Source: Candidatus Omnitrophota bacterium
GTDB lineage: Bacteria; Omnitrophota; Gorgyraeia; Tantalellales; Tantalellaceae
Direction: 5' to 3'
Assembly: GCA_043816025.1 (NCBI GenBank)
Contig: JBDRIH010000048.1
Coordinates: 1-51,928, forward strand
DNA length: 51,928 nt
Part shown: positions 1 through 49,046 of the stretch, piece by piece
Numbering within the stretch: position 1 is the first letter of the stretch
How the letters are laid out: the number at the start of each line of letters is the position of its first letter
Position numbers and translations under genes: made by a program
Notes under the pieces: model-generated
What the model was told of the DNA's origin: nothing
Databases searched by the model: none
The model's input: only the letters and a program-made list of their open reading frames with translations

Positions 1-83
1 TGGACCATGTAAAAGGGATTTTGCAGGAATCACTTATCCCTCATTGATAGTAGAATGGTGTCAGATACTTTTTCCGTTCAGGA

Positions 84-230
84 GCGATTTTTTAACGCCA
101 AAGATCTTAATCATTTCGGCGTCTGCGGAACTCGTCCGCCTTCGGCGAACTCAAACAGTCCTCGCCGCCGGAAAGATTTATTCAATCTTTCCGGATTCCG
201 AAATGTTCAAGCTGCTTTGTCTAAAATCGC
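84..230 (-). repeat. Branched hairpin element carrying the CTGTTTGAG-stem-CGAGTT motif on the minus strand
   Basis: gcgatttt(84-91) pairs with aaaatcgc(223-230), catttcgg with ccgaaatg, and ccggaaagatt(168-178) with aatctttccgg(184-194). The reverse complement of 129-158 reads ctgtttgag-ttcgcc-gaa-ggcgga-cgagtt, the same motif as in the ~200-nt rod elements. Confidence 0.6.
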
Positions 231-283
231 AATTTCACTCTAAAGGCTCCAGATCCGTTCATTCTAAGAGAATTGGCCTTTAA

Positions 284-479
284 AGATGAAAAAGTCATGT
301 TCTGGATGAGCATTGCAGGATTTTAGCATTTTTACAACTTTTTAAAGGCTAAAGTGTAAATTACTGTGTGAGCACTTGATATCAAAGAGATCAAGTGCGA
401 GTTTAATTTACACCCTTTAAAACAGTTAGAAAAATGCGGTAATAAATCCTGCGCGAAGAAAGAATATGACTTTTTATCT
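284..479 (+). repeat. ~200-nt rod-like hairpin element, copy 1 (structured ncRNA or MITE/REP-like element)
   Basis: Nested inverted repeats along its whole length; near-identical second copy at 48743-48945 with compensatory base changes. Confidence 0.85.
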
Positions 480-614
480 ACGTGGTGAGGGGCTATTGGC
501 TGCAGGCTACAAAAAATCACTTATTTTTTTGCTTTTTGCGGCGAAATCATATATTATTATACATAGTATAATATTATTTTCATTATTATATCTGGGCGAA
601 ACGAGGAGGCACAG

Positions 615-48525: not shown

Positions 48526-48592
48526 GGCTGCTTGTACTACTCCTAGGTCCGGCTAGAAGAAACAAATCTGAAACCTTTTCCGTTCAGCGAAA

Positions 48593-48677
48593 GTTAAAGC
48601 CATTTGCCATGCTCCTACCAGGGCCCCTCCGCCCGGTGTGGATCCTCCCTGTACGGAGCTTGGCAAACGACTTTAAC
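48593..48677. repeat. 85-nt imperfect hairpin
   Basis: Paired segments gttaaag/ctttaac, tttgcca/tggcaaa, gctcc/ggagc, tac/gta and aggg/ccct. Confidence 0.65.
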
Positions 48678-48726
48678 CTGCCAGATCTTGCCAAATCTAA
48701 CCTGGTTAGATTTGGCAGGTTAGATC
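48674..48726. repeat. TAACCTG/ATCTAACC palindromic family, copy 4
   Basis: taacctgccagatcttgccaaatctaacctggttagatttggcaggttagatc; resembles the reverse complement of copy 3 minus one internal unit. Confidence 0.8.
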
Positions 48727-48742
48727 CTTTCGTTCTTGGATA

Positions 48743-48945
48743 ACTAGGTTTTAAAAGCCATGTTCTGGATGAGCATTGCAGGATTTTAGTATTTTTATAA
48801 CTTTTTAAAGGATAAAGTGTAAATTACTGTTTGAGCGCTTGATATCATAGATATCAAGCGCGAGTTAATTTACACCCTTTAAAAAGTTAGTAAAATGCGT
48901 TAAGAAATCCTGCGCGAAGAAAGAATATGGCTTTTAAAACCTAGT
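48743..48945 (+). repeat. ~200-nt rod-like hairpin element, copy 2
   Basis: 24-bp terminal stem actaggttttaaaagccatgttct/agaatatggcttttaaaacctagt; core homologous to 284-479. Confidence 0.88.
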
Positions 48946-49046
48946 GCTGCGATAGACAGGGAATTTGAATTTCTGCCCCGCCTTGACAATGGCACCTTGG
49001 TATGATACTCTTTGGTTAAAATATATACTTTAGCTGCTATAATATT

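Follow-up and report, generated by a model that had tools for sequence, protein, structure and literature searches.

Among described bacterial sequences, the closest counterparts of the element reported here are intergenic palindromic repeats. Repetitive extragenic palindromic (REP) sequences are short imperfect palindromes of about 20–40 nt, and the gene of the cognate REP-associated tyrosine transposase (RAYT) is flanked by the repeat. Enterobacterial repetitive intergenic consensus (ERIC) sequences, or intergenic repeat units (IRU), are imperfect intergenic palindromes of about 127 bp in enterobacteria, the transposition mechanism of which is unknown, and the bacterial interspersed mosaic elements (BIMEs) of Escherichia coli are mosaics of REP and other motifs, bound by IHF, gyrase and Pol I. 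REP doublets that occur as hairpins, the REPINs, go together with RAYT transposases of the Y1 type (Bertels and Rainey 2011, PMC3116915). Here we describe a repeat family of about 195–215 nt, given the working name rod, two copies of which lie in a contig of 51,928 nt (JBDRIH010000048.1; the whole contig is called the window) from the genome of a Candidatus Omnitrophota bacterium (1,275,234 bases in 103 contigs, 48% G+C, 87.5% complete). We conclude that the rod is very probably a structured repeat, dispersed in the genome and under selection in single-stranded form.

The rod resembles the REPINs (PMC3116915) in being extragenic, multi-copy and non-coding, in having conserved inverted arms, a spacer retained for pairing only and frequent compensatory changes, in the hairpin predicted for single-stranded DNA (ssDNA) or mRNA, and in forming clusters by insertion into or beside existing repeats; as in the REP-RAYT setting, Y1 genes are found almost throughout the family. 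It is unlike them in its length (~200 nt), in its asymmetric internal loops, which are its most conserved part, and in its arms of ~55 nt, which by reading form no stable hairpin of their own and which the minimum-energy folds pair only with each other; nor is any Y1 gene flanked by rods. With ERIC the rod shares a whole-length imperfect intergenic palindrome, an occurrence across genera, a variable copy number and longer variants with inserts at fixed internal sites, although the two have no sequence relation, belong to different phyla and differ in length, and the rod has two old, often head-to-head subfamilies and a measured strand asymmetry. The rod loci are like BIMEs in their recurring intergenic order of modules (A1 or its shell, then pal36, then the rod; all introduced below), but these modules are much longer and are nested in each other's loops. 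Finally, unlike a miniature inverted-repeat transposable element (MITE), the rod is without conserved ends, target duplication or a parent insertion sequence (IS).

Results

Fold and strand polarity of the rod

The first-pass annotation of the window, made from its letters, had described two copies of a ~200-nt element in the same orientation; both are found where it placed them, on the + strand (Table 1), and positions 48753–48935 match 290–474 with 91.9% identity over 185 columns (BLASTN, E = 2e-70). The matching stretches, 284–479 and 48747–48940, each fold into a rod of roughly 95 bp. When folded as RNA alongside 200 dinucleotide-preserving shuffles per copy, copy a (270–490) reaches -77.7 kcal/mol (z = -8.9) and copy b (48735–48955) -99.7 kcal/mol (z = -13.3), with 0/200 shuffles as stable in either case. 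A column-by-column tally of the shared core, in which the events are our own reading, gives 15 differing columns or 13 events. Two are fully compensatory on both sides of a pair (basal stem, T-A to C-G; apical stem, A-T to G-C), and one is wobble-compatible (C-G to T.G); these are the three examples the annotation had picked out. Among the one-sided changes, three mend a copy-a mismatch into a copy-b pair and one breaks a pair, and the remaining six events fall at loop positions or are single-base indels. As also described there, the outermost stems are unlike in sequence yet each pairs with itself, and the internal loop GGATGAGCATT / GCGAAGAA is unchanged between the copies. Short open reading frames (ORFs) over the rod were rejected as genes, their frames being broken by single-base indels between copies.

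Table 1. Rod copies, companion repeats and other features of the window
Feature	Position	Strand	Basis
Rod copy a (B-type): basal stem, two conserved internal loops, apical hairpin	276..487, core 314-453	+	Fold, R1
Rod copy b (B-type); its outer stem CTAGGTTTTAAAAGCC / GGCTTTTAAAACCTAG is longer and nearly perfect	48735..48950, core 48777-48914	+	Fold, R1
Companion repeat 5' of copy a: A1 outer shell (68-98, 221-259), different interior, end ...CCAGATCC	60..283	+	Upstream alignment, module BLAST
Companion repeats 5' of copy b: shell-like 5' end, H47 (48600-48668), pal36 (48685-48728) ending GGTTAGATCC	48560..48745	+	Module BLAST
Apical G+C-rich hairpin of copy b, then conserved GAGTTAATTT tract; terminator-like, stem to T-rich run 3-4 bases	48835..48870	+	Consensus scan
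Promoter-like block before pilM, outside the element: TTGACA-N17-TACTCT (TG-n before TACTCT)	48983..49011	+	Reading of 8 relatives' spacers; not listed by consensus scan

The family was then described by a covariance model, R1, which covers 139 positions of the core and not the full-length element. Run on both strands of the same loci, R1 scores 133–153 bits on one and 40–45 bits on the other; copy a gives 143.3 bits on the + strand and 42.3 on the - strand, and copy b 153.6 and 42.8, respectively. Covariation was measured on 49 distinct sequences aligned to R1, a model-fitted alignment and hence one favourable to R1. In it, 91.0% of cells are standard pairs, against 67.0% with shuffled partners and 41–50% with slid partners, double-sided changes occur at 50/53 pairs, and 0/500 shuffles attain any observed measure. 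Covariation in a larger alignment, to which the annotation had looked for a check on its proposal, is abundant. The most conserved positions are two asymmetric internal loops with their closing pairs, 5'-A.G / C-GUUAA-3' and 5'-UGUUUGA / GAGU-3'; with helices 2–4 they form the conserved centre, helices 2 and 3 being conserved in sequence in both arms. The apical and basal stems of the alignments are unrelated in sequence between genomes and keep their pairing, and for the apical stem this holds from genus to genus.

The two strands of the rod are not equivalent. When 71 copies were folded without the model, each with 32-nt flanks, the favoured strand came out as the more stable in 64/71, by a mean of 8.3 kcal/mol. 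Its folds have 249 G-U pairs, and those of the opposite strand 111; in the R1 alignment there are 82 G-U against 44 A-C pairs. Such a bias in folding indicates that it is one strand, in single-stranded form, that is under selection, and together with the conserved loops it points to a function or a processing step on single-stranded material, be it RNA or ssDNA, and not to a purely double-stranded palindrome. The proposal of the annotation that selection bears on a single-stranded structure is in agreement with the pairing, the double-sided changes and the strand bias, and selection on the fold of one strand is strongly supported. We regard it as secure that the rod exists, folds as described and is polar with respect to strand.

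We considered whether the palindrome could instead be kept as duplex, by cruciform or fold-back repair or as the site of a dimeric DNA-binding protein, with no function of the single strand. Sequence conservation of helices 2 and 3 in both arms would suit this, and the perfect 16-bp outer stem of copy b could come from fold-back copying, but homogenisation of the arms should erase the asymmetric loops, which are nearly invariant, and a bias in stability and in G-U versus A-C pairs is unexpected for duplex DNA; we consider this explanation most unlikely.

A more serious contender, to which we nevertheless give well under even chances, is that the rod is a cis-acting RNA. Lying in the untranslated regions of neighbouring operons, it would be a processing site, a 3'-end protector, a terminator or an insulator (compare REP, ERIC and Correia elements), its loops would bind a host protein, and its spread as DNA would be secondary. 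RNA-like covariation with the loops most conserved speaks for it, as does the excess of G-U pairs on one strand. Besides, the tandem G.A-type loops are, in our own reading, reminiscent of kink-turns (K-turns), in which a three-nucleotide bulge is followed by tandem sheared G.A pairs and bound by an L7Ae-type protein; in the loop 5'-UGUUUGA / GAGU-3', GA stands on both strands beside the apical helix and the bulge has 5 nt. With its G+C content and the U-rich tract behind it, the apical hairpin is terminator-like. The consensus scan flagged the hairpin of copy b and not that of copy a; the tract begins 3–4 bases past the stem, a point against the cis-RNA reading, and the T-rich run is itself paired in the rod.

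Copy number, the A1 subfamily and companion repeats

What had been taken for a two-copy duplication is a larger family. BLASTN finds in the genome of the window (G000) 11 copies of the subfamily to which both window copies belong (B-type), 89–93% identical, plus one 35-nt fragment, and R1 finds, on the strand opposite to that of the rod alongside, 9–10 copies of a paralogous 195-nt element, A1. Since R1 also matches A1 (79–97 bits), with loops and helices as in B, A1 is a second subfamily of the rod element. Eight of the 11 B-type copies are uninterrupted. The 5' arm of the other three is interrupted by a 64-nt insert, and in one of them the 3' arm has an insert as well. A1 and B stand head-to-head, with their 5' ends adjoining, at 6/11 B loci, which are all the loci with a full A1; the one doublet of a second genome, G024, is likewise head-to-head, and a third genome, G042, has both types in variable arrangement. 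The rod is A+T-rich, with about 30–33% G+C against 48% for the genome.

Another repeat module, ending AGATCC or AGATT, lies no more than ~60 nt 5' of the rod at 11/11 B copies. It is A1 at six loci and a combination of an A1-like shell, H47 (a 69-nt hairpin) and pal36 (a 36-nt palindrome) at the other five; by module BLAST, H47 and pal36 each have dozens of sites in the genome. A 47-nt stretch of H47 (window 48612-48658, CTCCTACCAGGGCCCCTCCGCCCGGTGTGG...) is 100% identical at about ten of these sites, and 28–29-mers of H47 are found on nine contigs of G024 with 93–100% identity. We also observed that a Na/Pi cotransporter gene lies between two direct A1+B doublets and a thioesterase/YjbQ-like/aroB block between two inverted ones (C24:10898-13593 and C69:40688-43484); these bracketed blocks look composite-transposon-like, yet their cargo consists of housekeeping genes.

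Distribution and phylogeny

The rod does not correspond to a catalogued RNA. Rfam gave 0 matches in the whole window at gathering thresholds, and at E up to 10 only generic microRNA-precursor hairpins far under their thresholds, the best being 30.3 bits, against a threshold of 230, for the model of a plant microRNA precursor; the Rfam check named in the annotation thus places the rod in no described family. A literature search on Omnitrophota intergenic hairpin repeats and RNA motifs found no description of it either, and the rod is a real, undescribed family. Among public sequencing runs, only six, all of DNA, contain 4–7% of the sampled words, and no RNA run is listed. Two named RNAs were rejected: the hammerhead ribozyme, to which the outer loop CUGGAUGAG ... 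CGAAG is similar but which would require a stem I, lacks the extra core base found here and has no Rfam match, and 6S RNA, for which the copy number is unsuitable and Rfam again gives no match.

R1 matches, which are not copy numbers, occur in 20/54 same-family genomes from 17/43 genera, with 1 to 51 matches per genome; the other 34/54 have no match at the threshold used, and outside the family 2/145 genomes of the class have one. With BLASTN, 5/24 same-family genomes give weaker matches of 68–74% identity, one reaching 91%, and none is found in 16 genomes of other families in the class. The nearest three relatives by PilM identity (G012, G011 and G007, 92–94% complete) have no R1 match. A 23–24-nt core motif has 0 matches in viral contigs and occurs on 14 contigs of species-representative genomes, eight from one metagenome-assembled genome of Candidatus Omnitrophota and the others chance matches in unrelated taxa.

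In a tree of 72 core sequences, an A1-type clade with copies from G000, G024, G021, G042 and G023 stands apart from the B-type (support 99/96), and within each subfamily the copies group by genome and not by locus. Rods of G000 and G024 are 89–93% identical, freely covarying stems included, while the pilM, tyrS and rpsA genes of the same two genomes share 69–72% of their DNA sequence. The clustering by genome, the identity of the rods above that of the genes and the nearest relatives without a match would together fit repeated invasion or exchange, with hotspots of insertion, or else gene conversion between the copies; simple vertical descent fits less well. The near-identity of freely covarying stems in G000 and G024 also suits recent transfer better than the constraint expected of a cis-acting RNA. 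Elsewhere in these two genomes, 168 bases comprising the last 80 bases of gpsA and the following spacer are 96% identical (C45:32765-32932 and G024:C8:1436-1603). Contig C45 stops within gpsA, the remainder of which is not in the assembly.

The distribution bears as well on the idea that the rods are stand-alone genes for a multi-copy small RNA, a 6S-like or Y-like rod or a guide or scaffold RNA, each with its own promoter. A strongly polar, conserved structure of ~200 nt with two conserved asymmetric loops would be in keeping with this, the conserved 3' arm contains a promoter-like TTTACA-N16-TAAAAT, and the head-to-head doublets could permit divergent transcription from their junction. However, 1 to 51 matches in some genomes and none in most are unlike a housekeeping RNA, no protein gene consistently adjoins the copies, promoter-like matches are no commoner than in shuffled sequence, and Rfam at E up to 10 offers nothing beyond the sub-threshold hairpins; we find small RNA genes improbable.

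Genomic context and insertion sites

Genes around the rods were taken from plain longest-ORF calls and their names read off the translations, Pfam having been run for the genes of the window only. The copies of G000, A1 as well as B-type, are all intergenic, and the B-type copies lie between housekeeping genes in both orientations, the neighbours including argS, mfd, rpsA, tyrS, aroB, leuC, bioA, pabB and the genes for aspartate dehydrogenase, the Na/Pi transporter and an ABC ATPase; no transposase is among the genes adjoining the 11 copies. In the window, Pfam confirms the genes the annotation had named, PC4 and PilZ after copy a and PilM, PilN (a weak match) and PilO after copy b, and a tetratricopeptide-repeat (TPR) gene precedes copy b. 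The annotation had noted each copy upstream of a gene block, PC4-PilZ or pilMNOP; a particular relation to these blocks finds no support, since the other copies adjoin unrelated housekeeping genes in both orientations, and we set aside a link of the rod to pil or PC4 as incidental. Copy a lies directly upstream of a PC4-PilZ-mraZ-rsmH (dcw) region, with mraZ at window position 1506.

The TPR-to-pilM gene order is retained in 8 relatives, with spacers of about 100–325 nt against 521 nt in G000. By reading, these eight spacers contain no rod and have other hairpins or nothing; among the loci compared (L075-L086), G007, G014 and G004 carry different, unrelated long hairpins, so that this gap gathers hairpin repeats in several lineages. 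The TTGACA-N17-TAnnnT block before pilM is conserved, in place and in sequence, among the 8 relatives, which are of other genera and without the repeat cluster; in the window it follows copy b. It follows from these spacers and from the position of the block that the repeat cluster fills the gap between the stop of the upstream gene and the next promoter. At the rpsA-tyrS locus, by reading, a canonical terminator likewise precedes the repeat cluster and a promoter-like block follows it; the corresponding spacer of the closer relative G024 is not a clean empty site and has other sequence there.

This setting cuts both ways for a cis-acting RNA. Copy b, between the TPR stop and the pilM block, is where a terminator would be placed; the head-to-head subfamilies of G000 and G024 leave one partner always in sense, whichever the direction of transcription; and of the G042 copies in tandem gene contexts 18/20 are in sense. 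In contrast, outside G000 and G042 there are 15 antisense and 6 sense copies, and the terminator ahead of the rpsA-tyrS cluster puts the rod there, on our reading, in a probably untranscribed gap. Across the 62 copies with both neighbours called, the gene pairs are 50 tandem, 8 convergent and 4 divergent.

No target-site duplication was found at the 11 copies, the flanks of which are by reading inverted complements or unrelated and not direct repeats, with no close empty-site pair to compare. Nor does BLASTN find in G000 a longer element with the ends of the rod, the only extra match being the 35-nt fragment; an IS end, which the annotation had named as a possible identity, is not seen with rod termini in this genome.

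Nested insertions

The insert of the three B copies (C24:11032-11095, C15 and C99) is a two-hairpin module of 61–64 nt that starts AAACCGTGC and ends TGCCAG, and it sits at the 5-nt bulge just after helix 3 (...AGG^A...). The same module is present in one A1 copy (C65:49585-49850), in the same orientation relative to the favoured strand, the two subfamilies being ~70% identical. Its specificity for site and orientation, with no obvious duplication, resembles a minimal IS200/IS605-type element, by analogy. Other inserts also occupy unpaired sites, namely a different one of 24 nt at the same bulge in G004, and inserts in the 3' arm of the C99 copy, at its small internal loop, in the GUUAA loop in G014 and in the apical loop in G042. 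Either the fold addresses the nested insertions or only those that spare the fold survive, and on both readings the fold matters in the cell.

Candidate mobilising enzymes

Genes of the Y1_Tnp family (IS200/RAYT-type) are present in 48/54 genomes of the family and in 4/4 rod-rich genomes. The sole Y1 gene of G000 (contig C27, 4748-5311, minus strand, 187 aa, Pfam E = 9e-20) has the pal36 palindrome AACCTGGTTAGAT on both sides (C27:4648-5346, locus L155), and the two are a textbook REP-RAYT pair; at 14 more Y1 loci in 8 genomes each gene likewise has a short flanking palindrome of its own. Xer-type recombinases are also found in 4/4 rod-rich genomes, whereas IS110, TnpB, DDE_Tnp_1, rve and resolvase genes are each confined to one or two of these four. 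Reverse transcriptases (RVT_1) are in 0/4 of them and in 12/54 family genomes. This survey makes a Y1 enzyme acting in trans the best available candidate, and one not linked to the rods by position.

Several more specific schemes were tried and rejected. That rod termini follow the REP of the local RAYT holds loosely, by reading, for the A1 shell and pal36 in G000 and fails in G042 and G022. Bridge RNA of IS110 and guide RNA of TnpB or IscB are set aside with the genes missing from most rod-rich genomes, and a retron or other retroelement with no reverse transcriptase in the four. An integron attC site is set aside too: the copies are scattered in either orientation, and we noted no integrase of the integron type.

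A classical MITE would be an internally deleted cut-and-paste transposon, mobilised by a DDE transposase that acts on terminal inverted repeats. The rod is indeed small, A+T-rich, intergenic, multi-copy and palindromic, and rve-type genes are present in G000 and G042. Its termini, however, are wholly different between genomes while the centre is conserved, direct target duplications and a longer same-ended element in G000 are missing as described above, for each of rve, DDE_Tnp_1, IS110 and TnpB two or more of the four rod-rich genomes have no gene, and a strand asymmetry is unexpected for a double-stranded substrate. A MITE is very unlikely.

Discussion

Our best overall explanation, to which we give slightly less than even weight, is that the rod is a non-autonomous structured repeat akin to REPINs and ERIC, and that it is probably handled in the form of folded ssDNA. 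Its spread and its function in the host are inferred. Like REPIN or ERIC elements, the rod would be mobile without being autonomous, and it would be copied as folded ssDNA; landing always in one orientation and leaving no target duplication, it would settle next to or within hairpin repeats already present in the gap between a gene end and the next promoter; and the enzyme would be supplied in trans, candidates present in all four rod-rich genomes being only the Y1 (HUH, RAYT-like) transposases and the Xer-type recombinases. That the route is ssDNA of the Y1 type specifically is a tentative suggestion, possible rather than probable.

Several observations weigh against mobility of this kind. 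A rod adjoins the Y1 gene in 0/15 loci from 9 genomes, and in the one locus that has a rod R1 places it 2.5 kb off; every Y1 gene examined is flanked by a short REP of its own, that of G000 by pal36 and not by rods; and G022, with 17 R1 matches, has a Y1 gene with a different type of REP. The conserved part of the rod is central with long internal loops, suiting an RNA or a protein-bound structure, whereas known transposase substrates are conserved at their ends. Orientation relative to genes is inconsistent, G042 having 2 antisense copies beside its 18 in sense and the genomes other than G000 and G042 the opposite excess. Rods recur in different genera at several loci, among them gpsA (G041, G015 and G024), the spacer between the aspartate dehydrogenase and Na/Pi cotransporter genes (G000 and G022) and the ABC-leuC spacer (G000, G021 and G008), and a rod at the same locus in several genera fits long retention or function as well as it fits hotspots; G041 and G015 have a single R1 match each, at gpsA. 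Finally, no transposition intermediate, within-species empty-site pair or insertion polymorphism was observed.

The central conservation and the nesting also allow a further reading, unlikely in our view though less so than small RNA genes or a MITE. The rod could be a new kind of non-autonomous element that is constrained in its central core, read as a single strand by a dedicated protein, moving between genera, arranged head-to-head with its paralogue and serving as a site-specific landing pad for the two-hairpin element. If this were true, the intergenic DNA of Omnitrophota would hold an ecosystem of mobile elements, nested in one another, addressed by structure and mobilised by an as yet undescribed chemistry.

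In practice, rods disrupt assemblies, several copies lying at contig ends, and they may be mistaken for regulatory leaders or small-RNA genes. The Omnitrophota are uncultured bacteria with small genomes, the short intergenic gaps of which are packed with several nested families of hairpin repeats. The site-specific nesting of the two-hairpin module and the single REP-flanked Y1 gene make the Y1/REP question directly testable in vitro. Among the repeat families the rod is an unusually clean case, with ~70 copies in at least 15 genera, very strong covariation, a measured strand bias and a core of conserved loops, and it thus provides a defined substrate for finding the protein that reads it and for deciding between RNA and ssDNA.

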